Shown here piece after piece: positions 1 through 61,531 of a DNA stretch of 64,000 nt. The notes beneath the pieces were generated by a model. It had not been told where the DNA came from and ran no database searches. It worked only from the letters and a program-made list of their open reading frames with translations. The translations under genes and the position numbers were made by a program. The stretch comes from Chrysomallon squamiferum (lineage: Eukaryota > Animalia > Mollusca), in NCBI GenBank assembly GCA_012295275.1, contig CM022678.1, positions 6,138,001-6,202,000 of the forward strand. The letters run 5' to 3'. Each line of letters starts with the position of its first letter. Within the stretch, counting starts at the first letter, position 1.

Positions 1-715
1 CATGTCGTCATCATCATTTCCAACTAACAGTGGTTGTTGTTCTGGTAAACTTAACGTCTCAGCAAGCTTTTCCATATGAAGCCCCACACAATCATGCAGA
101 TTGTACAGAAATACAAACTCTTCTTCTGCAGCAGTTTGGTGGTATTTCTGGCAGATTTCGCAGTCTTGTTCTGCGACTGGACATCGGCCTTCAAGTAAAT
201 TGATGACGCACTCATTGAATAGACTTAGCTCTAACTCTCTGACGAAGACGGAACGCTGATTTGGAAAACATGATGACCACTGTTTCACTCTGATTGGGTT
301 CTTCTTAGCATCAACAACATCACATTCGTTGTCAAAATTCCACAGCTTTGGTAACAACACACAGTTTTCATTGTCCTTGCTTTCAATACTTTGTAAAGAC
401 ATTGTGAAATCCTCTTCATTGAATTTTGTGAGATCAATCCCACCACTGAAGCAGCAATCCAAAATTATCGTCACCTTTTCAGCTTTCAAGGACAGCAATT
501 GTTTCTTAATTTGTTTTAGAGTAATTATGCTTAAACCACCTCCTAAATGCAATGATGACTTATCGGAATGTCCAGAGAAATACAGAAGGAAAAATGGATG
601 TTCTTTTTCACGTATTTGCTGAGGAAGTTCACTGAATGCTTTTACTACTCTTTCACACATAAAGTAATCAATGACTGCTGGTTTTGATGTCGTTATCATT
701 GTAATATTTTCTTCT
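1..715 (-). CDS. Copy 1 terminal exon: catalytic core of the caspase-like domain (partial)
   Basis: Acceptor ttttag at 716-717. Open frame to the window edge. HPFFLLYFSGHS...IILDCCFSGG...QQPLLVGNDDDDM; close paralogue of ORF 17473..18201. Confidence 0.85.
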
Positions 716-1652
716 CTAAAAACAAAAGGAATAAGTAAACAAAATGTTCATTTTTTTCTTTCTTTTTTTAAACATGTATTATATAATAAAAAATAAAAAT
801 TCGGATTTCACAAAAAATAACTATTTCTGTTACTACAATCATAGCAAAAATTAAATATATAAATAATACATATTTATTTTCATATTAATTTTTTATTAAA
901 AACACAAATGACTAAAGACTAAAAAAATTGGTTACTAAAGACAAAACAAAATAAATGAAACAATACTTTCACACATACACACACACATATTTAAAATCGA
1001 TGAGTTAAATTTCAAGTTTATCCCTTTTTGTAATAAATTCATTTAAAAAAGAAAAAGTGATTAAAGCAAACACATGCACACACACAGCCACACACATTTT
1101 ACCTGATTCCAACAATATTAGGACTTTGCAGTTTCTCTTTCATTACATTTGTATCATTAATAAATATTTGATCAAAGTGTTTTATATAATAATAATAATA
1201 ATTATTATGTCAAATCAAAATAAATAAAATAGTACTTTCACATACACCCACACCCACTCAAAATAGGTGAGTTAAATTTTAATGTGATCCTTTTTTTGTG
1301 GTAAATGCTTTAAAAAAAAAAAAAAAAAGCGATTAAAGCAGCCACACCCATACACACACCCACACACATTTTACCTTATTCCAACGATATCAGGATCTTG
1401 TAGTGTTTCTTTCATTGTTATGGCATCATTAATAAATATTTTAGCTACGTCTTCTCTATGATCATAGCCTGCGATGATAAGGGCAAAACAGTTTTCATGA
1501 CCTGAGTTCAAATAAAAGAACAAATGTTTAAGTGTACACACTGATCAACTTAACAAAACTTAACAAAACACATATTATTTACTTCAATGTGGTGGTTGGT
1601 TTTTGAAAAAGAAATTTATTTGGAAGTTGTAATTTTATTTTTTATTAAAATG

Positions 1653-1732
<80 letters not shown>

Positions 1733-2025
1733 ATTTGTAAATAAAACTAAAGAAATGATTAACAGAATCAAACGTATAAAAATAAATTTAAAACAATAAA
1801 ATATTTCCGTATGAACATTTTTTATTATTATTATTATTATTACTATCATCATCATCATCATCATCACAGAGTTTAGGGTAATAATGCTACAAGAAATGAA
1901 ATTAACTGATTACACAATAAGAAATACATAAATTATTAAATGTTATGAAATATATTGAATAATAAAAATTAGAGCTTAATCTCGGATTTCTAGGATATGA
2001 ATAAAACAAACTAAAACACTCTCAA

Positions 2026-2074
<49 letters not shown>

Positions 2075-3782
2075 CACACCTCAACTTACCTACAGGAGAA
2101 AAGCACGGCCCATGATCTGTACAACGAAGTTGATTTTCCCATGACTGACGAAAACAGTCTACACAGAAACTGGGACATGCTTCATCGCAATGTCTTGACA
2201 AATGTCTTATTTTTGCTATTTAAGAAATAGATTTTTAAAGCAGATTACAGTTAAATTAAATTACCATTTAGACTAGCAGTGATTTAAATATATCTTGATA
2301 AATATTATTAACAAAACTGACTGACACTTATAAAAATAGAAAACAAAACAGTAATTAAGAATCACAGTTGTTCCAGTTTTTACGTGGTTTCTTTACATAC
2401 ACCAGAACATTCAAAATCTTGCAAAGAAATATTCTGGTAAATATCAAAAATATTCTTTTTCTTACCTGCAGGTTGTTTCTTACAGGAAATACAAACTGAA
2501 AATAATAAAATCATTTCAAAGAGATAAACAAAAAAGGTAACTGTAAAACAAAATCATTTGTATGAACTACACAGCAAAAGTGAAAAATTAGGCAACTGTT
2601 CTGAAAGGCTACTGATACAGATCGACGTTCAAAGTTCACTAGCAAATATGTTGGAGACTTAATTAAATTACTTAAATTATTCAAATATTCATAATATGTA
2701 TGTCAGAAGCTTAATAATTATTTGGAAACCAATCCTATCTCCAAACACATAGACACAAGAATAATTACATGCACACATATACTGAAGCATACAAGAATTA
2801 AAAAGACATACGCCTTTTCATAATTTAGGAAACTATTTCAAATTAAACCTACGCTCTTTAGGTTCAGTTTTCTTAATTTGTTCATCCAAATGGTCTTTTG
2901 TTTCCTTACTGCCACAGCTCACAATGATTTTTCTTATGGAACACTCTCTCTGACATCTCTCTATGTTTCTCAGAAGTCTCAAAAGCGCCTCAACAGTGGC
3001 AGGGACGTTGCTGTACAATACTTCTACAAATCAGATATAATAATTAAAACCAGTAATCAGCAAATCAGAAACTTGACTGTAAACTAAGAAGCAGCTTTGT
3101 AAAATGTTTAAATCAATTTTCTTACGGCTGTTTTGTTGCTGGAGATATTTCATTGGTAATAAGATATAGGAGTAATTATACACACTCTTGAGAAGGAAAT
3201 ACATTTTTATATTACTCTTTTTTGGTTATCCAAAACTGTTCTCTTGTATCAAATAAACAAACATTTGGAAATACGCATTTATTATTATTGATTTTTTATT
3301 ATATTATTTAATTGCAGTTCTGTTCTGGGCATTTCCAAATGTTTGTTTATTTCATAGAAGAGAACAGTTTTGGATAACCTAAAAAGATTAACATAAAAGT
3401 TCACTTCGTTCTTCAGAAACTGCAATTAAAAAATAAAATAAAATAATAGCTATTGGGAATGAATTATTTTTCATCAGTGACTGTTATTAATGAATCTTTG
3501 ATTCTGTATACGTCTATAACTGAATGGTAGTTAGTACTGATGACTGGTAAATTCACTTACCATTGTCGCAGAATGGTATAACTACTACAGATGAATCTTT
3601 ACAAACATGGAACATTTTTTCAATGATTTCTTTCACATTCCGTGCAGTTTTATAGTGCACCATTTGCCCAATTCCTTCTAATCCAGAATCTGTCTTCATG
3701 ACCTGGCCAGATCTAATTTCTTCCTCTTTGAAAGAAAGGGGAAAAAGAAGTTCCCAAAAATATACATACATACATACATACA

Positions 3783-3818
<36 letters not shown>

Positions 3819-5645
3819 TATATATATGTAACAAAACAAATATAATAATAAAAAAATAATAAATTTGCAATAAAGAGTTATATTATGATGCTGAATGTAA
3901 TTTCGATTAATGTGTTATGTTGTAGTGTTGATAATTATTTGGAATGTTGTTTATCATGTTGGTTAACTTGTAACAATAATGTTGAAATATTGTAATATTG
4001 AAAAAATAATCTAGAATAGTGACTTTAAATGTAATTGTGAAAATAACTTGGATTAATGGCTTATTCTGTAATGTTGAAAAATAATTTGGAACAGTGACTT
4101 ATAATGAAAAATAATTTACACTAGCAGCATATATCACAATATAGATAAATAATTAATAATAGAGGTTAATTTGTAATTTTAAAATTAAGTTTGTTTATAC
4201 TGTAACATTGAAAATAATTTGGAATAGGAGTTTTTATGTTGAAAGTAATCTGGAATAGTAGTTGAAACTGCAATTTTGAAAAAAAAAATTAGCTTAGCAG
4301 GTTATACTGTAATACTGAAAAAGTAGAATAACGGCTCAACTTATAGTTTGGAAAATAACTTCAAAATAGTGGCTTATTCTTTTTTTTTCAAAATGATTTG
4401 AAATAGAGGCATACACTGTAATGTTGATAGAATATTTAGTTATTTTGTGTTTGTTTCACAATAACTCAGTTTTAATTTATTTTTGATTGGTTTTCATATT
4501 ACTGCATACTCAGTTATATGATTTTATAATATCACTTTTTATAATAGATGACATCTGTTGCCACAACATTTTAAGATCTTTATAATTTGATTTAGTTTTG
4601 TTTTTCTTATCTCTATTTTAAAACCAATTACCTGTATATTTAACATATACTACAAACATAATATATGTACATGTATGTAATCATAGTACAATTGCTGGCA
4701 GTAGGCTATAAGAGGCAATGGGGAAAACTGATTCTGCAGTCCTTGATTGCTCAATCTGCTACAGTATACCTTAGGTAATTAAAACTATACCAGAAACATT
4801 GCATATCGAATAAATATAGAGAATTATATTACATCAGTAGTTGATAAATCTTATGGACCGTAATCAGCATAATTAACTTTATTTTCATTTATTATGAGAA
4901 AAATAAAATAAGAGAAACTTACTGAATTCTGACCAGTTTTCCAGTTTTACACCAATCCTCTGCAGAAGTGGGTGGATTGGTCCTTCAAAAGAAAGGAAAT
5001 AGAATCATAAAAATTCTTATTGTATTACATTTACTGTTAACTTCTTTCTTGCCAGTGGGATAACACTAATTTTAACAAATTATAGAAAGAAAATATTCGA
5101 AACCTCCAACAAAAAGAAAAAAAAAAAGAAAAAGACCTATCAGGACATGTATAAGTTTCTTGCATTGCTCTATATCCTGACATGGAGAAAAGATGACATG
5201 CCAGTCCTGTCTTTATCAGTTAATAATCTCTACATGTTCCTTACCATACCAAGTATACCTACGAATAAGACATCCTCTAATAAACCAGTTAAAAAGAAAC
5301 AACCCAAGACTTAATCTGTGACTGATCTCACATCAGCCAAGTATGTTTTTCACTGAGATACAGCCCTTTTTAGTGGCCAGTGTAAGTGATGGACTCTTCA
5401 GTATTAAATTGACATTTAGTGAGCAAAGAGGATTGATGTAAGTATGTACTAACCTACATTCAACATTTTGTCAGACCATATACAAACAATATCATCTGCT
5501 TTTATGTTATGAATGTCGTCTTCAGTTATAATGAGTTCAACTTTATCATCTGCTTTTATGTTATGAATGTCGTCTTCAGTTATAATGAGTTCAACGGCTA
5601 TTATTATTTCTTCGGGTAATTTTGCAGGCTCAGTTCCTTTTGCAT
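1..5645 (-). CDS. Paralogue copy 1: Macro-like + RING-variant + metacaspase-like (Peptidase C14) protein; 3' end runs off the window edge
   Basis: Phase-compatible GT-AG exons: 5454-5645, 4923-4982, 3561-3725, 2853-3023, 2466-2495, 2090-2215, 1375-1501, 1-715. All are open. Motifs: CFALIIAGY..INDA, FLLYFSGH (His 568-570), IILDCCFSG (Cys 451-453), CISC...CDEACPSFCVDC...W...CTDH. Exon-for-exon homologous to 36454-42706. Confidence 0.8.
3890..4430. repeat. Degenerate ~35-bp AT-rich intronic minisatellite (TGTAATATTGAAAAATAATTTGGAATAGTG-like); homologous arrays near 20960-21520 and 40540-41270
   Basis: Recurrent tgtaat..gaaaaataat..ggaatag motif in the same intron of all three paralogues. Confidence 0.6.
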
Positions 5646-6192
5646 CTGAAATCACAAAAGATATTATAAACTAATTAAGCTGGGACATTTTGTTATTTGT
5701 TGATGATATTGTCTATTCAAAAGGATTTAAATTTGCCTGATGTAATAGAACTGAATCATCAACTGGAGTGAAAGAAATCATAGAAATATTATAAACTAAT
5801 ATTTGGGACAATTGTGTCTACATGTATGTGTGAGAAGTGTCAATAAAAATAATATTTAACAATAAGATAACAGATGCATACTGTAATTATGTTTGTGATG
5901 TTCTAATGCTTAAGAAGATACTGTCACATATTTTATATCAGTATTATTTATAGGATTGTTGTGTGTATTTCTGGGTATAACAATAACAGTTTGTGACAGC
6001 AGAATTTTGTTTTAATACGAATGAAGAAATCATTAATACATATCAAACATCTGATAATGTTTAAGCATATCATATGATATAGAAGAATGCTATACAAAAA
6101 TCATTTATGCCAAAAATATTTAGTGTTTAAATAAATAAAGGCTTATGCATTTATGATTAAAATGTATATACATTTTTTCTACTAAAAGCTAC

Positions 6193-6377
6193 CTGCTGAT
6201 GATTTATTTTGATTTGAATCTTCAGTATGCTCTTCATCAGGACCAGCAGAAGATTTTTCATCGGAAAGAATGGTAACCAAATTCTCTGACATTCTGTTAA
6301 TAATTTCCTTGTTGTCTTGAAATGGAACAGACGATCCAGTTCTGTAATCAACAAGACTGTTCAACAGGATTCATCAA
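6193..6377 (-). pseudogene. Degenerate spacer-exon remnant of copy 1 (homologue of exon 43218-43466)
   Basis: Homologous peptide YRTGSSVPF..SAGP.EEHT.DSNQN. A deletion puts a TGA stop a few codons after the ancestral acceptor. Same remnant at about 23246-23433 in copy 2. Confidence 0.55.
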
Positions 6378-6415
6378 CTGGGGTGAAAGAAATCATAGAA
6401 ATATTGTAAACTAAC

Positions 6416-9573: not shown

Positions 9574-9609
<36 letters not shown>

Positions 9610-16378: not shown

Positions 16379-16456
<78 letters not shown>

Positions 16457-17472: not shown

Positions 17473-18217
17473 TTATGTTTGAGACAAATAAAAAGCCATA
17501 ACCATGTCTTCATCATCATTTCCAACTAAAAGCGGTTGTTGTTGTGGAAGATTAAATGTCTCAGCAAGCTTTTCCATATGAGGCTCCACACACTCATGCA
17601 GATTGTTCAGAAATACAAATTGTTGTTCTGCAGCAGTTAGATGGTATTTCTGGCAGATTTCGCAGTCTTTAGCTGCGACTGGACATCGGCCTTCAAGTAA
17701 CTCTATGATGCAGCTAGTGAATAGACTTAAGTTTAACTCTCTGATGAAGCAGGAACGCTGATTTGGAAAAGATGATGACCACTGTTTCACTCTGATTGGG
17801 TTCTTCTTAGCATCAACAACATCACGTTCCTTGTAAAAATTCCACAGCTTTGGTAACAACACACAGTTTTCATTGTCCTTGCTTTCAATACTTTGTAAAG
17901 ACTTTGTGAAATCCTCTTCATTGAATTTTGTGAGATCAATCCCACCACTGAAGCTGCAATCCAAAATTATCATCACCGTTTCAGCGTCCAAGGACTGCAA
18001 TTGTTTCTCAATTTGTTTTGGAGTCATTCTGCTTAAAAGACCTCCTAAACACAATGATGACTGATCGTAATGTCCAGAGAAATACAGAAGGAAAAATGGA
18101 TGTTCTTTTTCACGTATTTGCTGAGCAAGTTCACTGAATGCTTTTACTACTCTTTCACACATAAAGTAATCAATGACTGCTGGTTGTGATGTTTTTATCA
18201 TTGTAATATTTTCTTCT
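17473..18217 (-). CDS. Copy 2 terminal exon, caspase-like core with Cys->Ser
   Basis: ORF 17473..18201; acceptor at 18218-18219. Confidence 0.85.
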
Positions 18218-19186
18218 CTAAAAACAAAAGGAATAAGTAAACAAAATGTTCATTTTTTTCTTTCTTTTTTTAAACATGTATTATATAATAAAAAATAAAA
18301 ATTCGGATTTCACAAAAAATAACTATTTCTATTACTACAATCATAGCAAAAATTAAATATATAAATAATACATATTTATTTTCATATTAATTTTTTTATT
18401 AAAAACACAAATGACTAAAGACTAAAAAAATGGTTACTAAAGACAAAACAAAATAAATAAAACAATACTTTCACACATACACACACCCACAGACATATTT
18501 AAAGGCTTCAAAATAGATGAGTTAACTTTGAAATTTATCCCTTTTTGTAATAAATTCATTTAAAAGAAAAGAAAAAGTGATTAAAGCAAACACACACACA
18601 CACACGTACACATACATTTTACCTGATTGCAACGATATTAAGATCTTGCAGTTTCTCTTTCATTACATTTGTATCAATAATAAATATTTGATCAGAGTGT
18701 TTTATATTATAATAATAATAATAATAATGTCAAATCAAAATAAATAAAATAATACTTTCACACACACACGCACTCAAAATAGGTGAGTTAAATTTTAATG
18801 TGATCCTTTTTTGTGGTAAATTCTTTTAAAAACAAAAAGGAGAAACGATTAAAGCAGCCACACCCATACACACACCCACACACATTTTACCTTATTCCAA
18901 CGATATCAGGATCTTGTAGTGTCTCTTTCATTGTTATGGCATCATTAATATATATTTCAGCTACTTCTTTTCTACTATTATAGCCTGCGATGATAAGGGC
19001 AAAACAGTTTTCATGACCTGAGTTCAAATAAAAGAACAAATGTTTAAGTGTACACACGGATCAACTTAACAAAACATATTGGACATAACACACAGAAGTA
19101 AACACATATTATTTAGTTCAATGTGGTGTTTGGTTTTTGAAAAAGAAATTTATTTTGAAGTTTTATTATTATTTTTTTATTAAAAT

Positions 19187-19260
<74 letters not shown>

Positions 19261-19340
19261 GTAAATAAAACTAAAGAAATGATTAACAGAATCAAACGTA
19301 TAAAAATAAATTTAAAACAATAAAATATTTCCATATGAAC

Positions 19341-19382
<42 letters not shown>

Positions 19383-20816
19383 CATCATCACAGAGTTTAG
19401 GGTAATAATGCTACAAGAAATGAAATTAACTAATTGTATAATAAGAAATACATAAATTATTAGATGTTATGAAATATATTGAATAATAAAAATTACAGCT
19501 TCTTACAGGAAATACAAACTGAAAATAATAAAATCATTTCTAAGAGATAAAGAAAAAAGTAATTCTAAAAGAAAATCATTTGTATGAACTACACAGTAAA
19601 AGTGTAAATTTAGGCAGCTGTTTTGAAAGGCTCTTTATACAGATAGACATTCAAAGTTCACTAGCAAATATCTTGCAGACTTAATTAAATTACTTAAATT
19701 ATTCAAATATTCATAAAATGTATGTCAGAAGCTTAATAATTATTTAAAAACCAATCCTATGTCCAAACACATAGACACAAGAATACTTACATGCACACAT
19801 ATACTGAAGCATACAAGAATTAAAATGACATACGCCTTTTCATAATTTAGAAAACTATTTCAAATTAAACCTACGCTCTTTAGATTCAGTTCTCTTAATT
19901 TTAATGCGTGATATTTGTTCATCCAAATGGTCTTTTGTTAGCTTACTGCCACAGCTCACAATGATTTTTCTTATGGAACACTCTCTCTGACATCTCTCTA
20001 TGTTTCTCACGAGTCTCAAAAGAGCCTGAACAGTGGCTTTTGTGTTGCTGTACAATGCTTCTACAAATCAGACATTATAATTAAAACCAGTAATCAGCAA
20101 ATCAGAAACTAGACTTTAAACTAACAAGCAGCTTTGTAAAATGTCAAAATCAATTTTCTTATGGCTGTTTTGTTGCTGGAGATATTTCATTGGTAATAAG
20201 ATATAGGAGTAATTATACACACTCTTGAGAAGGAAATACATTTTTATATTAATCTTTTTTGGTTATCCAAAACTGTTCTCTTGTATCAAATAAACAAACA
20301 TTTGGAAACACACATTTATTATTATTGATTTTTATTCTATTTTTTAATTCTAGTTCTATTCTGGGCTTTTCCAAATGTTTGTTTATTTGATACAAGAGAA
20401 CAGTTTTGGATAACCTAAAAAGATTAACATAAAAGTTCACTTCCTTCTGCAGAAACTGCAATTAAAAAATAAAATAAAATAAAAAGAATGAATTATTTTT
20501 CATCAGTGACTGTTATTAAAGAATCTTTAATTCTGGATACCTCTGTAACTGAATGGCACAGTTAGTACTGATGACTGGTAAGTTCACTTACCAGAGTAGC
20601 AGAATGGTATAACTACTACAGATGAATCTTTACAAACATGGAACATTTTTTCAATGATTTCTTTCACATTCCATGCAGTTTTATAGTGCACCATTTGCCC
20701 AATTCCTTCTAATCCAGAAAATGTCTTGATGATCTGGCCAGATCTAATTTCTTCCTCTTTCAAAGAAAGGGGAAAACGAAACCGAAAAACATTCATATAT
20801 ATATATATATATATAT

Positions 20817-20871
<55 letters not shown>

Positions 20872-22698
20872 CATACACATACATACATACATATATATAT
20901 AAAAAACAAAGAAATAAAAGTAATAATAAAAATAAATAATAATAAAAAAACATTTGCAATAAAGATGCTGAATGTAATATCTATTAATGTGTTATGTTGT
21001 AATGTTGAAAATTATTTGGAAAGTTGTTTATACTATCATGTTGGTTAACTTGTAATAGTAACTTATATTGTAATATTGAAAAAATAATTTAGAATAGTCT
21101 CTTTAAATGTAATTTTGAAAATAACTTGGAATTCTGTAATACTGAAAAATAATTTGGAACAGTGACTTATAATGAAAAATAATTTACACTAGCAGCATAT
21201 ACCACAATATAGATAAATAATTTAAAATAGAGGCTTAATTTGTAATTTTGAAATTAACTTGTTTATACTGAAACATTGAAAATAGTATGGAATAGGAGTT
21301 TACATTACAATGTTGAAAATAATTTTCGAATAGAGGCTTATTTTTTAATTCTGAAAATAATTAGCAAAAGTGGATTAAACTATTGTTCAAAGTTATCTGG
21401 AATAGTAGTGGAAATTGCAATTTTTAAAATTTATAATTTAGAAAATAACTTCAAAATAGTGGCTTATTCTGTATTTTTCAAAATGACTTGAAACAGAGGC
21501 ATACACTGTAATGTTGATAGAATGTTTAGTTACTTTGACAGTGATGTCCATTTCTCTTTGTGTTTGTTTCACAATAACTCAGTTTTAATTTATTTTTGAT
21601 TGATTTTCATATTACTGCCTGCTCAGTTATAAGATTTTATGACACTTTTTACTAATAGATGACATTTTAATATCTTTATAATTTGATTTCGTTTGGATTT
21701 TCTGGTCTTTTTTTAAAAACTAATTTCCTGTATCAAATACTTAACATACTACAAACATAATATATGTACATGTATGTAATCAGAGTACAATTGCTGGTAG
21801 TAGGCTATAAGAGGCAATGGGGAAAACTGATTCTACAGTCCTTGATTGCTCAATCTGCTACAGTATACCTTAGGTAATTCAAACTATATCAGAAACATTG
21901 CATCTGGAATAAATAAAGAGAATTATATTACATCAGTAGTTGATAAATCGTATGGACCATAATCAGCATAATTAACTTTATTTTCATTTATTATGAGAAA
22001 AATAAAATAAGAGAAACTTACTGAATTCTGACCAGTTTTCCAGTTTTACACGACTGCCCCGCAGAAGTGGGTGGATTGGTCCTTCAAAAGAAAGGAAATA
22101 GAATTAAAAAAAAAGTTCTCATTATATCACATTTACTGTTAATTTCTTTCTTGCAAATGGGATAACACTAATTTTAACAAATTAGAGAAAGAAAATATAC
22201 GAAATCTGCAGCAAAAAGAAAAAGAAGAAAGAAAGACCTATCAGGACATGTATAAGTTTTTTGCATTGCTCTATATCCTGACATGGAGAAAAGATGACAT
22301 GCCAGTCCTGTCTTTATCAGTTAATAATCTCTACATGTTCCTTACCATACCAAGTATACCTACGAATAAGACATCCTCTAATAAACCAGTTAAAAAGAAA
22401 CAACCCAAGACTTAATCTGTGACTGATCTCACATCAGCCAAGTATGTTTTTCACTGAGATACAGCCCTTTTTAGTGGCCAGTGTAAGTGATGGACTCTTC
22501 AGTATTAAATTGACATTTAGTGAGCAAAGAGGATTGATGTAAGTATGTACTAACCTACATTCAACATTTTGTTAGACCATATACAAACAATATCATCTGC
22601 TTTTATGTTATGAATGTCGTCTTCAGTTATTATGAGTTCAACTTTTACGGCTATTATTATTTCTTCGTGTAATCTTGCAGGCTCAGTTCCTTTTGCAT
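17473..22698 (-). CDS. Paralogue copy 2: Macro-like + catalytically dead metacaspase-like domain, RING exons deleted (~492 aa with the putative first exon)
   Basis: Exons 22555-22698, 22022-22081, 20592-20756, 19875-20060, 18891-19017, 17473-18217 are all open and phase-compatible. FLLYFSGHY and IILDCSFSG (AGC at 17953-17955). ~500-bp deletion at junction 19500/19501. Confidence 0.8.
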
Positions 22699-23481
22699 CT
22701 GAAATCACAAAAGATATTATAAACTAATTAAGTTGGGACATTTTGTTATTTGTTGATGATATTGTCTATTCAAAAGGATTTAAATTTACCTGATGTAATA
22801 GAACTGAATCATCAACTGGAGTGAAAGAAATCATAGAAATATTATAAACTAATATTTGGGACAATTGTGTCTACATTTATGTGTGAGAACTGTCAATAAC
22901 AATAGTACTTAACAATAAGATAACAGATGCATACTGTAATTATATTTGTGATGTTCTAATGCTTAAGAAGATACTGTCACATATTTTATATCAGTATTAT
23001 TTATAGGATTGTTGTGTGTATTTCTGGGTATAACAATAACAGTTTGTGACAGCAGAATTTAGTTTTAATACGAATGATGAAATCATTAATACATATCAAA
23101 CATCTGATAATGTTTAAGCATATCATATGATATAGAAGAATGCTATACAAAAATCATTTATGCCAAAAATATTTAGTGTTTAAATAAATAAAGGCTTATG
23201 CATTTATGATTAAAATGTATATACATTTTTTCTACTAAAAGCTACCTGCTGATGATTTATTTTGATTTGAATCTTCAGTATGCTCTTCATCGGGACCAGC
23301 AGAAGATTTTTCATCTGACGGAATGGTAACCAAATTCTCTGACAACATTCTGTTAATAATTTCCTTGTTGTCTTGAAATGGAACAGACGATCCAGTTCTG
23401 TAATCAACAAGACTGTTCAACAGGATTCATCAACTGGGGTGAAAGAAATCATAGAAATATTGTAAACTAACACAGACTTAC

Positions 23482-24240: not shown

Positions 24241-24322
24241 CTGATTACTTCACACGTGTTATCACGTTCATAGATTATATAAAGTATTGGAATTAAATTA
24301 TAGGATGGTAAGAAAGTGATAA

Positions 24323-29184: not shown

Positions 29185-29231
<47 letters not shown>

Positions 29232-29600: not shown

Positions 29601-30039
29601 AAAAATTTTATATCAAAACATTTTTTTGTTTAAATTAAACCAGTTGGAAGAATGTATCTGTAAAGGCACTTCAGTGTATTTTTATATTCTACATAATAGT
29701 GTTAAATAAAATAGTATTACAACAAATATTTTGTATAATTTGTTTGTTTTTTTTTTTTTTTTTTTTTTTTTTAAATATTCCAACATTAAAAATTAAAGAA
29801 ATTAAAAAATAATATTTGTTTAACAATATATGAATACATTATTGAATTAAATTAACAAATGATTCCAAAAGTAAGAAAAGAAAATGAAAATAGTAAATTT
29901 ATTTTTCTTTTCTTTTCTTACTTTTTTAATTTTTCACATTATACTAGGTATTTAAGAGCAAATCCAATTAAAGCATATCTTTCGTGATACAAAAGAAAAA
30001 AAACTAAATAAAATTTGCCTTCCAGTTGCAAGAATAACA

Positions 30040-35865: not shown

Positions 35866-36453
35866 ACTGGCAAACCAGTCCCTATTTATGCCAAAAATTT
35901 TGGTCTCAATATGTATATCACGTTTGTTAAAACTGTATATTATGGATACTGGATTGGTTTGCATCCCCAAAGGGTGTACATAGATATATATGTTTTCTTA
36001 CATTTTATTATTATTAATTTCATTAATGATATAATAACAAAAAAAAACCCATTTATTTCTGAATACAAAAACTTTAAAAATGCTCTCCAGTCTTAAGAAT
36101 AACAAAGTACAATAACAAACAAGTGCACTTTAAAGGTATCTGGACAACATCATTTTTCTGTAGTCATGATATCATGACATTCAAGTAAGACTGATTTTCT
36201 CTAAGTATTCCTCTAACAGAATAAAAAAAAAATAGTGCTAGGAGTCTGCAAAGTATGCCATGACATCATGACTCCAGTTTGGATGGATGGATTACATGGC
36301 CTAATTCAAATCTTTCTCGACGTTGTCATATTTTGTTATGAATAATGATAAGTTGCCAGAGCAATAAAATGAAAGCTTAGAAACTTACAAAATTAGTTTT
36401 CAGCCATTTATTCATATCACCACAAGTACACTTGCAACTTTTTGCATCTCAGA

Positions 36454-37197
36454 TTATTTTGTTTGAGACAAATAGAAAGCAACAGCCATATCTTCATCGT
36501 CATTCCCTTCTAACTGTGGCTGTTGTTCTTTGTTGTACTTATGAACAAGCTTCTCCACATGAGGCACCACACACTCGTGCAGATTGTTTAGAAATACAAA
36601 CTCTTCTTCTGTAGCTGTTAGGTGGAAGGTCTGGCAGTATTCACACTGGTCGTTTTTCACTGGACACTGGCCTTTAAGCAAATTTGTGATGCAGAGAGTG
36701 AATAGACTGTTTTTAACTCCCTGTGGAAGAAGGAACGCTGCTCTGTAACAGACGATGTCCACTGTTTCACAGTGGTTCTGTCCTTCTTAGCACCAAGACC
36801 ATCGCACTCGTCCTCCAGATTCCACAGCTTTGGTAACAACACATAGTTTTCATTGTCCTTGCTTTCAATACTTTGTAAAGACTTTGTGAAATCCTCATCG
36901 CTGAATGTTGTCAGATCAACCCCACCACTGTAGCAGCAATCCAGAATTATCATCACCTTTTCAGCATTCAAGGACTGTAATTCTTTCTTAAGTTGTTTTG
37001 GAGTCATTCTGTTGAAACGATCTCCGAAATGCAATGATATATGATTATTATGCCCAGTGAAATACAGAAGGAAAAATGGATGTTCTTTTTTATGTATTTG
37101 CTGATGAAATTCTCTGAATGCTTCAATTACTTTTTTATCCATAGAGTGATCACTAAGCGCTGGTTTTGATGTAGTTATCAATTTAATATTTTCTTTT
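36454..37197 (-). CDS. Copy 3 terminal exon, caspase-like core (YFTGH / ILDCCYSG), split by a frameshift
   Basis: ORFs 36657..37280 and 36454..36762 together align with ORF 17473..18201. Confidence 0.85.
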
Positions 37198-40100
37198 CTA
37201 AAAACAAATAAAGTAAGTAAACAAAAAGATAATTTTAATTTAAACATAAATAAAATAACTAATTCTGTTCCTACCATCACACCAAAAACTGAATATTTAA
37301 ATAATACATTTTCATTTTTATATTAATTTTCATTAAAAACACAAATAACTGTGTAAAAGATATGATACAAAACAAAATAAATTCAAAGCAATAAATTATC
37401 ACTTGACACTTACTGCATATTCAGCAACATTTTTCATAATCATTTTAAACAGTGATAGATGATTTGTAACAATTCCTGCTCAATACATATTTACTATCAA
37501 CAAACAGGAGACAGAAAACATTTAAAAGCATGGCACTAAATAAAGGAATTAAACAAAAGCCCAGTGGCAATAAATGCACAGAAATAAAGAATATCTTACT
37601 GATTTGTTTAGGACTTTTTGCATAAGTTTAAAAAGTATTAATTACAGCAAAAGTGTGAAACACTACTACTACTACTACTAATAATAATAAAGACATAGAA
37701 AGATAATAATTAAAAAATTTTAATAATAAAGACAAAACAAAACAAATAAAACAATACTTTCACAAACACATGGACACACATAAAGGTTTCAAAATAAGGG
37801 AGTTAAATTTGAATCTGATCCCTTTTTGTGATAAATGCATTTACAAAAAAAAAAAAAAAAAAAATGTATAAATACTTAAGCACCCACACCCACACATTTT
37901 ACCTTATTCCAATTATATTAGGATCTTGCAGTGTCTCTTTCATTAAATTTGCATCATTAATGAATATTTCAGCTGATGCTTTGTCAGAATCATGGCCTGC
38001 GATGATAAGGGCAAAACAGTTTTCATGACCTGAGTTCAAATAAAACAACAAATGTTTAAGTGTACACACTGGTCAACTTAACAAAACAAAAAGTCATTAA
38101 ACATACCACGCACCAGCAAACACATATTATTTACTTCAATGTGATGATTGTTTTTTATTTTTATTTGTTTTTTTATTTGGAAGTGGTAATTTAAATTTTT
38201 GATGAAACTGTTCTCTGTTTTGTGTGTGTGTGTGTTTTGTGAATAAAACAAAAAAAAAAAATTAACAGAATCAAGCATGCAAAATAAGTTTAATCCAATA
38301 AAATCTTTCTTTATGAACATATTATTATTATTATTATTATTACCATAATCACAACCTTTGGTGTAATCATGCTACAAGAAATGAAATTAACTGATTACAC
38401 AATAAGAAATATATAAATAATTAAATTTATGGAAACATATGAAAAGAAAAATTACACACACACACACACACACACACACTATGAATGTAACACACACACA
38501 CACACACAGAAATGTACCCATAACATAAACCAATACAACTCAACTTACCTACAGGAGAGAAGCACCGCCCATGAACTGAACAATTAAGTGGATTTTTCCA
38601 TGACTGGCACAAACAGTCAACGCAGAAACTGGGACATGCTTCATCACAATGTCTTGACAAATGTCTTATTTTTGCTATTTAAGAAATAGATTTTTAAAGC
38701 AGATTACAGTTAAATTAAATTACCATTTAGACTAGCAGAGATTTAAATATATCTAGTCAAGTATTATTAGCAAAAATTGGTTGACAGTTATAAACAAAAC
38801 AATAATTAAGAATCACACAAATCTATTAATTTAAGACGATTTGTTTCTGTTTTTTAAGTGTTTTCTTTACATGTACCAGAAGATTCAAAATCTTGCAAAG
38901 AAATATTCTTGTAAATACCAGAAATATTCTTTTTCTTACCTGCAAATCGTTTCTTACAGGAAATACACACTGAAAATAATGAAATCATTTGTAATAGATG
39001 AAATACTTCTTTAATTGCAAAGCAACTGAACAGCAAAAGTATCTTCAGAGGTGAAAAATTAGGCAGATGCTTTTGGAAAGGCTATTTAATTTAAAGGATT
39101 AGCAAAAACAGACACATACACTTTTATAAACATGAATATATATACAGTGGTGGGATTCAAAAATTTTTAAAACAGGTTCTTTTGGTAATAGTAAGTCAGC
39201 TTTGATCTGTAGGCTACTAGATGCTACATGCTACCAGGTGAAATTATTATTAATAATTTATTTTTGCCAAATAAAAAACACAGTGGTTGAAATATTATTT
39301 GACAACACTGATGAGATTGTACACGGTTAATAATCACTTAATATAAAGCAAGGAGTGACTTATGTAAGCAAATCAACACCAAGCTAGCTCTATTAACAAC
39401 TGGTTTCATTGAACTCATGAAATTCCAAGAATGGGTTTTACAAAACATTGCAAACTAGCTTAATCCTATCACTGTACATACATACAAACAGACATTCAAA
39501 GTCCACTAGCAAATATGGTCTTGTACAATTAATTTATTCATGTTATTCAAATATTAATAATCTTTGTTAGAAGAAACCAGTCCTATCCACACACATACAC
39601 ACACACACACACACACATACAGATACACACATGCTGAAGCAGACATAGTAGAATTAAAAGGAAAAAAATTAAAAAAATTCTAGTTTAGAAAACTATTTGA
39701 AATTAAACCTACGTTGTTTCTGTGTTTCAGTGTGAGAATGACAGGATATAAGTTCATCCAAATGGTCTTTTGTTTCCTTACTGCCACAGCTCACAATGAT
39801 TTTTCTTATGGAACACTCTCTCTGACATCTCTCTATGTTTCTCACAAGTCTCAAAAGTGCCTGAACAGTGGCTTTTGCGTTGCTGGACAGTACTTCTACA
39901 AATCAGACATAATAATTAAAACCAGTAATCAGCAAATCAGAGACTTTAAAATAACAAGCAGCTTTGTAAAAAAAAAAAAATGTAACAATTTTCTTGTGGT
40001 TGTTTTGTTGTGAGAGACATTTCATTGCTAATAATAAAGTATAGCAGTAATTTTATACTCAAAAGAAGACTGCCATTTTTCTTTCTGTTATGTGTACTTC

Positions 40101-43100
40101 TGATATGTTTTGTCTGAAGATAAATTTATTCACACTTGCTTGTTACCTAATTAAGTAAATTACTGGCAAAGTTAAAATTTTGCTTACTGTAGTGAAATGT
40201 AAAACTATTAGGGATGAATTATTTTTCATAAGTGATAATTATTAAAGAATCTTTAATTGTATATACCACTATGACTGAATGGTGCAATTAGTACTGAATT
40301 CACTTACCGTAGTGGCAGAACGGTACAACTACTACAGATGAATCTTTACAACCATGGACAATTTTTTCAATACTTTTTGTCAGATTCCATGCAGTTTTAT
40401 TGTTGCAAACACTGTGCAACATTTCCCCAATTCCTTGTAATCCAGAATCTGTGCTCATGACCCGGCCAGATTGAACTATTTTCTCTTTTAAAGAAAGGAA
40501 AAAAAAAAAAAAAAATAAAAAATAAATAAATAAAATAATAATATTGAAAAATAATTTGGGAAATGAGTTACACTGTATTGTTGAAAGGTAATTTGCAATA
40601 ACAGGTTATGTTATAGTACTGAATATAAATTGGATTAATGTGTTATACTGTAATGTTGAAAATAATTTAGAAAGTTGTTCATATTAAGTTGGTTAACTTT
40701 GTAATAGTAACTTACACTGTAATACTGAAAAATAATCTGGAATAATGAATTAAAATATAACACTGAAAAATAATTTGGAACAGTGACTTAAGCTGTAATA
40801 TTGAAAAATAGCAGCATGTAGCACAATATAGATAAATAACTTAAAACAGAGGCTTAATTTGTAATTTTGAAATTAACTTGGAATAGTGGCTTATACTGTA
40901 ACTTTGATAGAATATTTAGTTACTTTGGAAAGTTGTTTATACCATGTTGGTTAACTTGTAATAGTAACATATTCTGGAATACTGAAAATAATTTAGAATA
41001 GTGACATTAAATGTAATTTTGAAAATAACTTGGACTAATGACTTATTTTGTAATACTGAAACAAATCTGGAATAATGGGTTATAACATAACACTGAAAAA
41101 TATTTTGGAACAGTTACTTGTACTGTAATATTGAAAAATAATTTACATTAGCAGCATGTACCACAATATAGATAAATAATTTAAAATAGAGCCTTAATTT
41201 GTAATTTTGAAATTAACGTGAAAAAGTGGCTTATACTATAACTTTGATAGAATATTTAGTTACTTTGACAGTGATGTCCATTTCCCTTTGCATTTGTTTC
41301 ATAATATCTGTTTTAATTTATTTTTGATTGATTTTCATATTACTGCATAATCAATCAGGTGACTTTATAATAACACTTTGTATAATAGTTGCCACAAAAT
41401 TTTAATGTAGTTTTCTTTTCTTTCATTATTTTTTTTTTTTTACTAATTACCAGTATCAAACATTTAACAGACTACAGATATAATATATTATAAATGTATG
41501 TCATCATAGTGCACTTGCTGGCAGTAGACTATAAGATGCAATGAGGAAAACTGTTTCTACAGTCCTTGCTTACTGAATCTGCTATAGTCTAGTTTAGGTA
41601 ATTCAAACTATATCAGAAACAATTACAAGAAAAATAAAAATAAAAATAAAAGAAACTTACTGAATTCTGACCAGTTTTTCAGTTCTTTGCCAGTGCTTTG
41701 GAGAAGTGGGTGGACTGGCCCTTCAACAGAATAGAAATACAATCATAAAAATTCTTATTGTATTACATTTACTGTTAATTTCTTTCTTGCAAGTGGGATA
41801 ACACAGATTTTAACAAATTAGAGTAAGAAAATGTACGAAATCCACAAGAAGAAGAAAAAGAAGAAAGAAAGACCTAACAGGACATGTATAAATTTCTTGC
41901 ATTGCTCTATATCCTGACATGGAGAAAAGATGACATGCTGCTGCCAGTCCTGTCTTTATAAATTAATAACCTCTACATGTACCTTACCATGCCAAGTATG
42001 AATATACCATAATAAACCAGCTAAAAGGGAAACAGCCCAAGACTTAAACGATGATTCATCACACATCAGCACAGAATGTTTTTCACTGAGATACAGCTCT
42101 CTTCAGTGGCCAGAGCAAGTGATGGAATTTTCAATATTTAACATTTAGTTTGCAAACAATATAAGATGTAACAGGGCTTGAAATGGCCAGTTGCCAAATT
42201 GCCAGAATGTTAAAAATATTATGGGTTAGTCACTGAAAAATATGATTTGAACAACCTTTTTTTTTTTTTAATAAAATTATAACACAAGGGCCATTATTAA
42301 TAATTATATCGAAAATATTTATTTCACATAAAAGGTTTTGCTTGCATTTTATTAAACTTCAAAAATTTAATGATCAAGTACATATTTCCTTTCACTTAAA
42401 TGCTGAAATATGAATGTTTTTTTGCTTGGGCTATCAAAAACAAATTTGGGCCACTGAATTTGTTTCAAAATGAATATTTAGTGGCCCACGTTTGTTTTTT
42501 GGGTCACCGTACATTTCAGATGAGTTTTGAGCCCTGTATAAGTATGTACTAACCCATATCCAACATTTCCTGAGACCACATACAAACAATATAATCGGCT
42601 TTTATAACATGAATGGAGTCTTGAGTTATAGCCAGTTCCACTTTTTCTGATAATATTTCTTCGGATGATCTTGAAGGCTTATTTGTAATCACCTCAGTTG
42701 CATTATCTGAAATCATAGAAATATTATAAACTAACTTGAGGTATTGTCATTTGCTGATGATACTGCCTCAGCAAAAGAAATCATAGAAATATTATACCAT
42801 TAACATTTGGGGCAACTGTGTCTACATGTGTGTGTCAGAACAATAAAAATAGTACTTAACCATAAGATAACAGATGACCTGTAATTATGTTTGCTAATTT
42901 TTAAGAAGATACTGTTACAGATTTTCTATCAGTATTAATATAATTATGGCCATCACTTTGGCCATGTTTTGATAGGACTGTTCTTTGTATTTCTGAGTAT
43001 AAAAATAACCAGTTTGTGATATCAAAAGGATCTTTTAATATGAATGATGAATTTGAAGTCATTAATGTGTGCAAAACCTGTTACGAATTAAACATAAATC

Positions 43101-46052
43101 ATGATGTAGAGGAATACTAATTGAAAAAAAATGTATGTCAAAAACATTTAGTGTTTAATGGCTTATACATGTATCCTTCAAATTTATGAAAAACATTTTT
43201 TTTTTCCTGAAACCTACCTGGTGCTGAAAGATTATTTTTATTTGAATCTGCAGTATGCTCTTCAGCAGGACCAGCAGAAAATAGTTCATCTGAAGAAATG
43301 CTATTGAAATTCTCAGGATTTATTCTATTAATAAAACTGGCGTTCTTTCGAAATGGTACAGATGATCTGGTTCTGTAATTAGCTTGAAACATGTTGTTAT
43401 TTGCTGATGATGTCAACTTTTCAGCAGAATTTAAAACGTCCTGATGTAATGGAACTGAATCATCAACTGGGGTAAAAGAAATCATAGAATATTATATTAT
43501 ATTTAAACTAATATTTGGGGCAACTGTGCATACAGTGGATGTGTCATAACTATCTCAATAAAAATAGTAGTTATATATATAAAAAAAAAAAATTCCTGAA
43601 ACCTACCTGGTGCTGAAAGATTATTTTGATTTGAATCTGCAGTCTGCTCTTCAGCAGGACCAGGAGAAAATAGCTCATCTGAACGAATGTCATTCAAATT
43701 CTCAGGAAATGGAATAGACGATCCAGTTCTGTAATTAACTGGAGACATATTGTTATTTGTTGAACAGACCCTCTGTTCAAATGGTTTTAAATCTGTCTGC
43801 TGTAATGGAACTGAATCATCAACTGCGGTAAAAGAAATCATAGAGTATTATAGACTAATATTTGGGGAAACTGTGCATACAGTGGATGTGTCATAACTAT
43901 CTCAATAAAAGTAGTACTTAACAGTGAGATAACAGATGCATACTGTAATTATTTTTCTGAAGTTCTAATGCTAAAGATGATACTGTTACTGATTTTCTAT
44001 CGGTATTATTATAATTTTGGCCATCACTTTTGCCATGTTGTTTGTATTTGAGGTTATAACAATAACAATTCACAACAGCAAAAGTTTCTTTTAATATGAA
44101 TGATGAATTTGAAGTCATTAAAGGGTGCCAAACATCTGATAAAATTTAAACAAATCATATGATTATGATGTAGAGGAATGCTATACAAAAAATATTTATG
44201 TCAAAAGTATTTAGTGTTTAAAGGCTTATACATGTATCCTTTAAAATGAACGAATTTTTTTTTTTTTCTGAAACCTACCTGGTGCTGAAAGATTATTTTG
44301 ATTTGAATCTGCAGTCTGCTCTTCAGCAGGACCAGGAGAAAATAGCTCATCTGAACGAATGTCATTCAAATTATTAGGAAATTGATTAGACGATCCAGTT
44401 CTGTAATTAACTGGAGACATATTGTTATTTGTTGATGAGACCCTCTGTTCAAATGGTTTTAAATCTGTCTGCTGTAATGGAACTGAATCATCAACTGGGA
44501 TCAAGGTCATTTGCCTCTCATATGAAACATTTCCTGGCTTCAGAGTTGTATTCTCAGGTTTTGCCTCGTTTGTGACTGAAATGGAATCACCTCGCTGGCT
44601 TGCATTAGTGTCCCATGTTAACTGTGTCAGTGAATTTTCATTTTTGTCTGGTTGGTATGGTACAACAGATATGTTACTGAACTTTTTAAAACACTCTGAA
44701 CAGTAAGGTGCTGTTTGAACTGTACTGAAGTTACCACAGTCTCTTTTACAAAGTGAATTTAACAACATCTTATGTTTTTTACTAGCATTTACAAGTGTGT
44801 TGGTGTTGAAATTATTGGATTCAGAGGTTACGCGACTAGGGGACCAATTGTTGTCATAACTCTCTCCAGTGGTAGAACTAGTCAATTCAGAAGATCCTGT
44901 TTCAAATAAATATTTTTGAAAACAAACACTACACATGTTCAGCTGATCTGGGTCACCATAAAAATTACAGCCATGTGTTTTACATACCTTCTGCCTACCA
45001 GCTACTGTTAAATCTGAAAAATGATTTGGCAAAGATTGGTATTTTGCCAGCTTTTCTTTGTCGTAGCATTTACTGCATTTATTACCAAACTTAGGACTGC
45101 CAAAATAGGCACAGCCTTGGACAATGCACTGATTAGAAGAAGCAGACTCATGTATTTCAGTTTTGTTTATACATTCAAAAAGCGTGAAGCAACCAGCACA
45201 TCTTCCACCCAGAGATTCTATGCCCTTCTTCGTGCATTCCTTTTCTGAACATTTTCTGTAATTTATCTCAGAAACACTTCTTTTAATTATCTGGTTGGGT
45301 TCTGTCAGACCACTGACATTTGAAGATACTCCAAGAGTATTATTCCAAGCATTATTTTCTAGCTCAATTTCAGTGTGATTTTCTAGTTCACCGGTTTCAT
45401 CTCTGTTTTTACATGAACACCAACAACCATTAAAAATATATTCTGGAACAGATGATGAAAATCCTTGACATTTTTTGCAAAACTGGAATAGATTAGCACA
45501 CTGGTTACACAGATCTGCATTTTGTTTGGAGCCATAATTTCGACACATTTTGTTTTTACATTTACCGATTTTATAGTTTTCCGTTTCTGATTTATTACAC
45601 CTTTCACAAACACACTTGTAAGCATTTATCAAACAACATGGTATGTCTTTAGTAAATCCAAAGCAAATACTGCAAAATCCATATTTTTCATTACACTGTG
45701 AACAGAAAGGGTAATTTTTGTCATTAGTAACGTTCTGACACTCAGGATTCTTGCAGATGTTCCGAGATGGAGCATTGTTTGTGGTTTCATGTTGACTGTC
45801 ACAGCAACAGAGAGGACATGAATGTAAACTGCCTGGAAGAGGTCTTGCTACTTTTTTACATTTTGTGCAAAATCGAAAACGTTCTGAACATTCATTACAT
45901 AGACCACCTGTTTTATCATTTCCAAAATGAGAACAATTTCTGTTCAAACATTGCATACTCTGTTTCTTAAAGCAGCTGTTGCACAAGTTTTGATTTTTTG
46001 GGTTGCCATAATTCGGACATCCAGAAGAACTACAGCGACTAGGATTTTGCAT
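36454..46052 (-). CDS. Paralogue copy 3 (full length): 8x A20-type zinc finger + spacer repeats + Macro-like + RING-variant + metacaspase-like domain, ~1279 aa; 1-nt frameshift at 36710-36714
   Basis: Exons 44279-46052, 43607-43822, 43218-43466, 42554-42706, 41661-41720, 40308-40484, 39713-39895, 38940-38969, 38549-38674, 37903-38029, 36454-37197. All are GT-AG and phase-compatible. Total 3839 nt, one short of 1280 codons. Confidence 0.8.
44279..46052 (-). CDS. Large exon encoding eight A20-type zinc fingers (C-x3/4-C-x11-C-x2-C)
   Basis: 603-aa ORF, e.g. CSSSGCPNYGNPKNQNLCNSC, CIVQGCAYFGSPKFGNKCSKC, CKTHGCNFYGDPDQLNMCSVC. Donor G|gtaggt at 44277-44278; upstream acceptor at 46147-46148. Confidence 0.9.
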
Positions 46053-46458
46053 ATCAGAAGAAAAATTAATTCAACCATTACAGTTAAATAGTCTTTTTGA
46101 GAATTCCTTGGGATAGGTTCACCATTGGGGCTTTTCAGATTAATATCTGGAATAAAAAAAAACCTAAATGATATACATGCAATAATAAGTAATAAAAAAT
46201 GGGCAAGTCTAATAAACAAATAATCCTGTGAACTCTAAACAATTAACAATAAGCTTAAAGAACTAAAACAGCTAAAAAATGTATCTCATAATGTGTATGT
46301 GTGTATTAGTTCATATTACATATATTTGGAAACTTCTAAAGAAGCATGCACATTGTTTGATCCAAGCAAAACTAATTACAAATAACATAATGAATATGTA
46401 GTTATAACTGATACCTCAGTAGTTTGTGTAAATCAAAGCATAATCTATTAATGAACAA

Positions 46459-47374: not shown

Positions 47375-47520
47375 TTGCGTATCACTAAATTATTGTTTAA
47401 AAACAATCAAAGAATTAAAACGAGGAGGGAAACAACAACAACTGACGTCTGCGTTTTTTTCACTAAAGGGAGTTAATTCTATTTTACAGATTGGCAGGTA
47501 ATTAAATCGTACTACGCTCA
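47375..47520 (-). other. Possible non-coding first exon of copy 3
   Basis: Donor caa|gtaaga at 47373-47374 in a locally CpG-richer stretch upstream of the 46146 acceptor. The 5' boundary is a guess. Confidence 0.3.
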
Positions 47521-51234: not shown

Positions 51235-51276
<42 letters not shown>

Positions 51277-51550
51277 GTACCTATAATTGTGCATGTTGTT
51301 TTCACCATTAGTGTTTTTTTTTTTTTTTTTTTTCCAGGGTGGAGGAAGTGGTGGAAGTATTAGGTAAGACTTTTATTTTTATTTTTTTTAAATTGATTAT
51401 TATTATTTTTTTTTTTTTTTTTTTTTTTGCAAATTACTGATATAATAAGCAACTTCTGCTATTCTCTGAACTTGGACAACATTGCAATTCTGTATTTTTT
51501 ATTATTTTAATTAATATATTGTATAATTTTTTTAATTGTTTTTGTAATTT

Positions 51551-51589
<39 letters not shown>

Positions 51590-61497: not shown

Positions 61498-61531
<34 letters not shown>

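Follow-up and report, generated by a model that had tools for sequence, protein, structure and literature searches.

A predicted A20 finger, Macro-like, RING-like and metacaspase-like protease gene of Chrysomallon squamiferum and its invertebrate relatives

The stretch of DNA analysed here, 64,000 nucleotides of Chrysomallon squamiferum contig CM022678.1 (positions 6,138,001 to 6,202,000), is referred to as the window, and all positions below are numbered within it. It contains a gene of 11 coding exons, running from 46052 to 36454 on the minus strand, whose product joins an array of A20-type zinc fingers to a Macro-like segment, a RING-like finger and a C14-type protease domain, with two tandem paralogues downstream; the finding lies on the minus strand throughout. 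The window has a GC content of 28.5% and holds long homopolymers. All 10 introns are AG/GT-ended and the exon phases are compatible, in agreement with the 11-exon model of a first-pass annotation of this DNA, and the start codon, the ATG at 46052, lies 3' of an in-frame stop within the same exon. RNA and DNA reads were compared over 36200-46400 using the contigs of four runs from two studies, from which no expression level is obtainable. The gene comprises the following parts:

47376..47439, minus strand: upstream non-coding exon with a GT donor at 47375, matched by the loose end, at 46146, of the RNA contig X6; its 5' end is unmapped.
44279..46146, minus strand: exon 1, amino acids (aa) 1-591, with eight A20-type fingers, three extra Cys clusters and the start of the low-complexity linker (X6 contig 44460-46146).
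43607..43822, minus strand: exon 2, a linker repeat of 72 aa that matches the exon 1 end at 97% identity and is perhaps skipped; its junctions are not among the RNA joints listed.
43218..43466, minus strand: exon 3, an 83-aa diverged linker repeat, absent from (skipped in) one RNA contig.
42554..42706, minus strand: exon 4, aa 747-797, start of the Macro-like segment, with RNA joints at both ends.
41661..41720, minus strand: exon 5, aa 798-817, Macro-like (splice model and RNA contigs).
40308..40484, minus strand: exon 6, aa 818-876, Macro-like (splice model and RNA contigs).
39713..39895, minus strand: exon 7, aa 877-937, end of the Macro-like segment (splice model and RNA contigs).
38940..38969, minus strand: exon 8, 30 nt, first CxxC of the RING-like finger (C939, C942), with joints in a divergent RNA contig only.
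38549..38674, minus strand: exon 9, remainder of the RING-like finger (C957, C961, C965, C968, C979, H982), from the homologue alignment.
37903..38029, minus strand: exon 10, where the C14 domain begins with its first strand and helix and the predicted S1 residue Asp1015 (RNA joints and alignment).
36454..37197, minus strand: exon 11, C14 domain with His1081, Asp1118, Cys1120 and the p10-like part, one base short at about 36710-36714 (Pfam, paralogues and contigs).

Four of the ten modelled junctions (exons 4-5, 6-7, 9-10 and 10-11) are matched exactly by RNA, and junctions 7-8 and 8-9 occur only in the divergent RNA contig, which in exon 9 has five of its seven listed differences in common with one of the paralogues (paralogue A) and may represent another allele or another copy. 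A further RNA joint leads from the end of exon 1 directly to exon 4, bypassing the linker exons, with 30 letters on its short side; because the ends of exons 1 and 2 are 97% alike, this joint may begin at exon 2, and a shorter splice form therefore probably exists, with a product of ~1124 aa, or ~1196 aa should the joint begin at exon 2. Two other models were discarded, namely an exon 4 donor at 42584, since the RNA joint places it at 42554, and an additional upstream coding exon, encoding for instance an OTU domain, which is ruled out by the in-frame stop 5' of the ATG and by the RNA joint to the short upstream exon.

Set against both in-window paralogues, the assembled exon 11 lacks a single base within an A5 run (about 36710-36714), and its frame therefore ends at 36657, after 1211 aa. 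One added base restores exactly 1279 aa, which is the length given in the first-pass annotation, although the latter missed the frameshift, along with the two paralogues and the wider family. At this site, one base more than assembled is found in X8 (RNA, depth 5.2/5.2) and X9 (DNA, depth 214.6/368.1); for the X6 and X1 contigs an extra-base row is not among the rows listed, and X1 has 437 letters over 436 places and X6 311 over 310, the position of the gap likewise not being among those rows. The base loss is a probable, not proven, assembly error, and the locus is a real spliced gene whose intact length of 1279 aa depends on disregarding it.

This product contains the Macro peptides quoted in the first-pass annotation, as well as the Cys/His cluster and the C14 domain. 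The protease domain has a His1081 and Cys1120 dyad, with the nucleophile motif ILDCCYSG; each of the 18 named homologues from animals retains H1081, C1120 and D1015, and all but one retain D1118 (17 of 18), the two aspartates being predicted, from the alignment to metacaspase 4, as those of the specificity (S1) pocket. True caspases (C14A) possess a QACxG nucleophile motif and a basic S1 pocket; here the QACxG motif is replaced by ILDCCYSG and the predicted S1 positions are Asp. The Death and Ig domains of the type 1 paracaspase layout were found neither in the window exons nor in the proteins P0001 and P0002, the latter an abalone relative that served for structure prediction. Features typical of metacaspases are present, i.e., a p20 and a p10-like domain, the dyad and a predicted acidic S1 pocket. 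In metacaspase 4, an acidic segment after the His binds calcium; that segment is missing from the family profile, and the DDD of metacaspase 4 aligns to non-acidic residues.

Compared with PDB sequences, the family profile (alignment A3) gave 16 matches at an expect value (E) <=1, headed by ten metacaspase sequences (E 9e-12 to 2e-3) and followed by PIG-K (0.049) and caspase-1 (0.057); MALT1 is not among the 16, which does not exclude kinship. The model of P0002 shows the caspase-haemoglobinase fold of clan CD at Z scores of 17-22, and the individual scores are 21.7 for Arabidopsis metacaspase 4 (root-mean-square deviation (rmsd) 2.7, 212 residues aligned), 21.7 for legumain, 21.4 for a plant asparaginyl ligase, 20.3 for metacaspase 9, 20.0 for PIG-K, 18.9 for a caspase and 17.8 for MALT1. 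Against Pfam C14 the window exon alone scores 17.2, below the cut-off of 21.4, which several relatives pass. Pfam C13 was matched at E 0.018, below its cut-off and more weakly than C14, and the comparison with legumain is otherwise a structural tie; as to the secretory signal of legumain and GPI transamidase, the N-terminus of the product is a zinc finger. The best NCBIfam model, and the only one to match all eight tested sequences, is that of the EACC1-associated caspases (NF047832; E 9e-16 to 4e-4, 23-58 bits against a cut-off of 140), and the nearest Atlas clusters are bacterial C14 proteins (score 0.93). Together, the profile, structure and NCBIfam comparisons therefore place the domain in clan CD, as metacaspase-like by sequence. 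Judged by its motifs it is not a caspase, judged by architecture it is not MALT1, and in sequence it stands nearer to the metacaspases of plants and fungi than to the caspases of animals. A homodimer prediction for the RING-C14 part of P0002 returned "no answer" (score 0.00, mark 0.32) and was used neither way.

Immediately ahead of the protease, eight ligands with RING spacing (C2-C2-C2-CH, ligand 4 being Cys and ligand 8 His) are found in the window protein and in 23 full-length proteins, and the set, which closes with C-x2-H, lies in every case a few residues N-terminal to the first strand of the protease. The RING-like model of a homologue, L001 (predicted local distance difference test score 77.6), gave weak structural matches (Z<=3.0), about 19 of 22 of which are RING proteins, and its Foldseek matches are weak as well (E>=0.22), with ZZ fingers mixed among them, which weakly supports a RING fold. 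In Saccoglossus (P0030 / P0092), one model has two tandem RING-like fingers ahead of the protease.

A full HMMER search with a profile of the last exon retrieved 62 representatives at E<=0.001. Among the 29 of them that were examined, 15 are named, all from animals (Haliotis 3, Gigantopelta 3, Owenia 2, Lingula 1, Ptychodera 2, Glandiceps 1, Saccoglossus 1, Branchiostoma 2), and the RING-C14 module recurs in molluscs, annelids, brachiopods, hemichordates and lancelets; several of the weaker matches carry bacterial-type partner domains. A word-indexed search with the window C14 exon against longer proteins yielded none from 438 candidates, which is weak evidence because the full HMMER search gave 62, and a further profile search found only four abalone proteins out of 7992 scored. 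The complete order of fingers, Macro, RING and C14 was found in Haliotis only (five of 4720 candidates, plus cluster members), in H. asinina (two proteins), H. cracherodii, H. rubra, whose protein stops within the protease, and H. rufescens. These proteins, all "uncharacterized", are 32-36% identical to the window product over aa ~770-1274; they bear out the four modules and their order as read by the first-pass annotation, and orthology to them rests on architecture. That annotation had recognised the layout from no characterised gene; it is indeed uncharacterised, and yet it already stands in RefSeq, with the same domain order in abalones, as "uncharacterized protein".

Elsewhere, the module is preceded by other front ends, namely CARD-DED-kinase, DED-kinase, Death-kinase, TIR-kinase, ankyrin-kinase and ankyrin-ROC-COR-CARD. 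At the L001 locus, an intronless gene of 1041 aa with a TIR-kinase-RING-C14 layout lies at 1300-4425 (plus strand) among non-coding flanks; its kinase motifs look degenerate, and the end of the flank is presumably, by resemblance, a LINE-like fragment. In a tree made with a quick method from 59 of 66 rows (seven short rows were dropped), the window protein groups with Haliotis and Gigantopelta (SH-aLRT support 99) inside an unresolved fork; the backbone is open, and therefore neither animal monophyly nor gene transfer is claimed.

One way of reading the protease and the RING-like finger is as a catalytically weak or dead scaffold or E3 ligase, in which the fingers and the RING would read and write ubiquitin and the C14 domain would bind substrates or true caspases in the manner of c-FLIP. 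The Asn that follows the catalytic His, the loss of the nucleophile Cys in the second paralogue (paralogue B), the eight RING-type ligands kept in 23 full-length proteins and the preponderance of RING domains among the weak fold matches would all suit such a protein. It is nonetheless unlikely, given that all 18 named homologues, drawn from five phyla, keep the dyad unchanged, a constancy unusual among pseudo-enzymes, that the fold matches of the RING are weak (Z<=3.0; E>=0.2 with Foldseek) and that the window protein is without the Pro of the family's CPxH motif.

The Macro-like segment is recognisable by structure and hardly by sequence. Pfam Macro had no match even at E<=10, and a profile of seven abalone proteins did not find a Macro structure by sequence. 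For aa 388-570 of P0002, all ten Atlas structure rows come from Macro-bearing clusters (template modelling (TM) score 0.68-0.74), and its AlphaFold2 model matches macrodomain 3 of PARP14 (Z 11.5, rmsd 3.4, 160 residues aligned); aminopeptidase N-domains equal Macro domains in score (Z 11.5). These comparisons support a Macro alpha/beta fold in the abalone relative, to whose domain and its abalone counterparts the window segment is 20-30% identical (pairwise E 1e-9 to 6e-7). Macro domains that bind or hydrolyse ADP-ribose carry the motifs GDI, NAAN, GGG and G-x-F-G; in the window protein these read QDSI, CMWS, MGPV and FCHY, and they are replaced in the abalone proteins too. The first-pass annotation had proposed a sensor of two signals, whose protease would be turned on by ADP-ribose bound to the Macro domain in combination with ubiquitin binding. 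Since the binding loops look degenerate, ADP-ribose sensing is doubtful and only the fold survives of that part of the claim; the fold matches of P0002 and the retention of the domain in every abalone relative found speak for the two-signal sensor, yet the missing Pfam match, the replaced motifs, the low identity to the abalone domain and the equal score of aminopeptidase N-domains leave it distinctly unlikely.

Eight fingers of the form C-x3/4-C-x10/11-C-x2-C, as counted by pattern, start at aa 7, 35, 100, 165, 268, 309, 357 and 435, and Pfam zf-A20 (PF01754) is passed with six stretches (E 2.5e-18, 66.1 bits against a cut-off of 21.6), so that the number and type given in the first-pass annotation stand. 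The folds it had assigned segment by segment were upheld for zf-A20 by Pfam and for the Macro and clan CD domains in P0002, whereas that of the RING has weak matches and the window C14 exon falls short of its Pfam cut-off. No OTU domain was matched in the window exons or the abalone proteins, and the first finger lies at aa 7, behind an in-frame stop. Among the closest PDB sequences of the array, 9 of 12 hits are fingers of ZFAND5, TNFAIP3 and Rabex-5 (E 8e-4 to 0.05). Fingers 6 and 7 have the pattern C-x-F/Y-F/Y-G, which is that of ubiquitin-binding fingers, and each abalone protein has one or two such fingers. Three CxxC...CxC clusters after fingers 2-4 (aa 62-84, 127-152 and 192-214) are of a non-A20 type and unexplained, and the linker (43218-44500, minus strand) consists of a triplicated exon-like unit with a SAPG end, of which exon 2 is a duplicate of the exon 1 end that arose recently (97%).

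The top finger match, ZFAND5, would fit a housekeeping role in proteostasis, in which a metacaspase-like protease would reach proteasomes or ubiquitinated aggregates by way of ZFAND5-like fingers, and in yeast the metacaspase Yca1 has a link to the clearance of aggregates. Conflict-driven genes are a better match for the tandem duplication, the fast protein change and the fusions with TIR, death-fold and kinase domains, and this role is regarded as improbable, with a small chance of being correct.

The two paralogues bear on this last point:

1..6400, minus strand: tandem paralogue A, exons 4-11 open and dyad intact, truncated by the window start, with degenerate upstream linker exons.
17476..23460, minus strand: tandem paralogue B, which retains exons 4-7, 10 and 11 and a shortened exon 8, has no exon 9 and carries Ser in place of the nucleophile Cys.

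No zinc-finger exon of either was found in the window, and paralogue B, going by its sequence, is probably a pseudogene. The ratio of nonsynonymous to synonymous change (dN/dS) against the paralogues is 0.94-0.97 for the Macro segment, 0.66-0.79 for the protease and, with paralogue A only, 0.41 for the RING. In exon 1, all 19 single-nucleotide variants (SNVs) among the rows listed change an amino acid, compared with 14.9 expected (P about 0.009, or 0.015 with one per codon), and in finger 4 (aa 165-185, 45460-45560, minus strand) five codons are changed in other individuals, three of them directly after the second Cys, which suggests, without proving it, diversifying selection on exon 1. A DNA-transposon-like remnant with a weak helix-turn-helix match lies immediately upstream of both paralogues (6400-9700 and 23470-24250), and a broken retrotransposon with a reverse transcriptase fragment at ~7200-9600.

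It is very improbable that the gene is a pseudogene broken by the frameshift or that the first-pass annotation joined two separate genes, for although exon 11 is one base short as assembled, a whole-gene contig was not seen and 4/10 junctions are not among the rows listed, X8 and X9 hold the extra base, RNA joins the end of exon 1 or 2 to exons 4-5 and also joins exons 6-7 and 9-10-11, and the abalone proteins carry all four modules in a single chain.

The reading favoured here is that of one spliced gene encoding a ubiquitin-recruited protease of immune or cell-death signalling, predicted to cut after Arg/Lys, and it is evenly poised between being right and being wrong. Through fingers 6 and 7 the protein would attach to the ubiquitin chains of signalling complexes, these fingers standing in for the TIR, death-fold or kinase front ends of other family members, and the long flexible linker would give the protease reach to its substrates. 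The Macro-like domain may be a degenerate interaction module rather than an ADP-ribose enzyme, and the RING-like finger a fixed cap or regulator of the protease. Activation would be calcium-independent, through local concentration as in MALT1, and the RING-capped protease would then cleave after Arg/Lys without calcium. What the analysis shows directly is the structure of the gene, its motifs and the domain context; the Macro, RING and clan CD folds are predicted on relatives, and ubiquitin binding, specificity, activation and pathway are inferred for the product. The immune or cell-death role, raised in the first-pass annotation as a possibility, has gained support, short of proof, from the partner domains that relatives join to this RING-C14 module and from the rapid evolution of the protein.

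Several points weigh against this reading. The full ubiquitin-type pattern occurs in just two of the eight fingers. Gly follows the catalytic His in canonical C14 enzymes and in 6/18 homologues, whereas the residue here is Asn. By structure, legumain (Z 21.7) and PIG-K (Z 20.0) are level with the metacaspases, and Foldseek orders legumains first for the P0002 model. The dN/dS values of 0.66-0.97 for protease and Macro segment also fit relaxed constraint or pseudogene paralogues; the SNV test covers 40 of 186 rows, some of which may be window errors, and for the eight exon 1 SNVs that differ among runs P is only 0.10. As regards the transcript, RNA joints and the same-order abalone proteins back a single gene, while no contig among those of the four runs spans from the zinc-finger exon to the protease exon, junctions 1-2, 2-3, 3-4 and 5-6 were not found among the RNA contig joints listed, and both RNA runs are contigs of one study.

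Around the gene, a mitochondrial ATPase inhibitor (IATP) gene lies head-to-head with it (48786-55290, plus strand), and two exons of 81 nt in it (52723-52803 and 53278-53358) match the same profile positions 68-93 and are therefore likely mutually exclusive, as far as the sequence alone tells. AT-rich tandem repeat arrays with a unit of ~1.46 kb occupy 11400-17200 and 25400-29900, and an OATP/SLCO transporter has its last exon, coding for a long C-terminal tail that is GC-rich and repetitive, at 60886-61968 (minus strand).

More broadly, the four-module layout common to abalones is uncharacterised, and the invertebrate metacaspase-like protease family to which it belongs is apparently undescribed. 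It is proposed tentatively, and with somewhat more doubt than belief, that marine invertebrates of at least five phyla hold an overlooked third lineage of C14 death or immune proteases, neither caspase nor MALT1, which would be RING-capped, calcium-independent, metacaspase-like and equipped with shuffled sensors (TIR, DED, CARD, Death, ankyrin, ROC, kinase), the gene in the window being its ubiquitin-chain-switched version with finger surfaces under arms-race selection. If true, the known set of death proteases in animals would need revision, since a conserved metacaspase-like family with an intact dyad would span protostomes and deuterostomes in connection with innate-immune domains, and it would provide a testable pathway for farmed abalone. 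It would also bear on whether animals inherited or acquired bacterial-type caspase-like immune effectors, and an A20 array coupled directly to a protease would be a simple model for ubiquitin-triggered proteolysis.

In the full-text literature searched, which leaves most subscription journals outside its coverage, neither the four-module architecture nor the RING-C14 family is described in the text available, that of PMC8195603, PMC7836458, PMC5978004, PMC11463336, PMC5756287, PMC7159879, PMC3196919 and PMC11258130 included, and family members could be listed in the literature beyond it. According to the available parts of the sources, metacaspases are absent in animals (PMC5756287; 10.64898/2026.09.23.753419), with p20-only metacaspase-like proteases in early metazoans (PMC5756287). 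Lophotrochozoan canonical caspases with kinase, ROC, TIR and PARP prodomains have been reported (PMC11463336), and the join of kinase, ROC or TIR to a caspase-fold protease is shared with the family described here; these are canonical caspases, chosen by BLAST and PROSITE p20/p10, and the RING cap and architecture are unmentioned in the accessible text. In bdelloid rotifers, a horizontally acquired metacaspase and a C14 expansion are known (PMC11258130), and metacaspase-like animal genes therefore have a precedent, although those are rotifer-specific horizontal acquisitions, and the RING cap and architecture are likewise unmentioned in the part of that paper at hand.

With TNFAIP3/A20, ZFAND5 and Rabex-5 the product shares A20-type fingers, and TNFAIP3 likewise has a finger array; unlike in these proteins, OTU, AN1 and VPS9 domains are lacking and the fingers stand at the N-terminus of a chain that includes a clan CD protease. 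The fold match links the Macro-like segment to the macrodomains of PARP9 and PARP14, from which the product differs in having no PARP or WWE domain and degenerate binding loops. The bacterial EACC1-associated caspases or orthocaspases (NF047832; GSU0716, 3bij), described in the excerpt available as conflict-system proteases with variable partner domains (PMC7159879), resemble it by the NCBIfam match and the nearest Atlas clusters, but the bits are far below the cut-off, an EACC1 partner is lacking and the gene is an intron-rich animal one. MALT1, which is another animal clan CD protease (Z 17.8, rmsd 2.9, 199 residues aligned), cleaves after Arg in immune signalling and, as a type 1 paracaspase, has Death and Ig domains around its protease, paracaspases being perhaps a metacaspase subclass of several origins, as the available text has it (PMC5978004); Death and Ig domains are missing here, and MALT1 scores below metacaspase 4, legumain and PIG-K. 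The metacaspases (C14B) themselves, which in the part of the review available have a calcium-binding acidic site on p20 and are activated by calcium (PMC5756287), provide the top PDB profile matches (metacaspase 4, 6w8s/6w8r; metacaspase 9, 8a53; Yca1, 4f6o; Trypanosoma brucei MCA2, 4af8) and share with the product the D-x-C nucleophile motif, an aligned Asp in the first helix region and a p10-like tail, whereas the product is set apart from them by the missing acidic segment of metacaspase 4 after the His, the Asn that follows that His, its multidomain N-terminus, its RING-like cap and its animal host.

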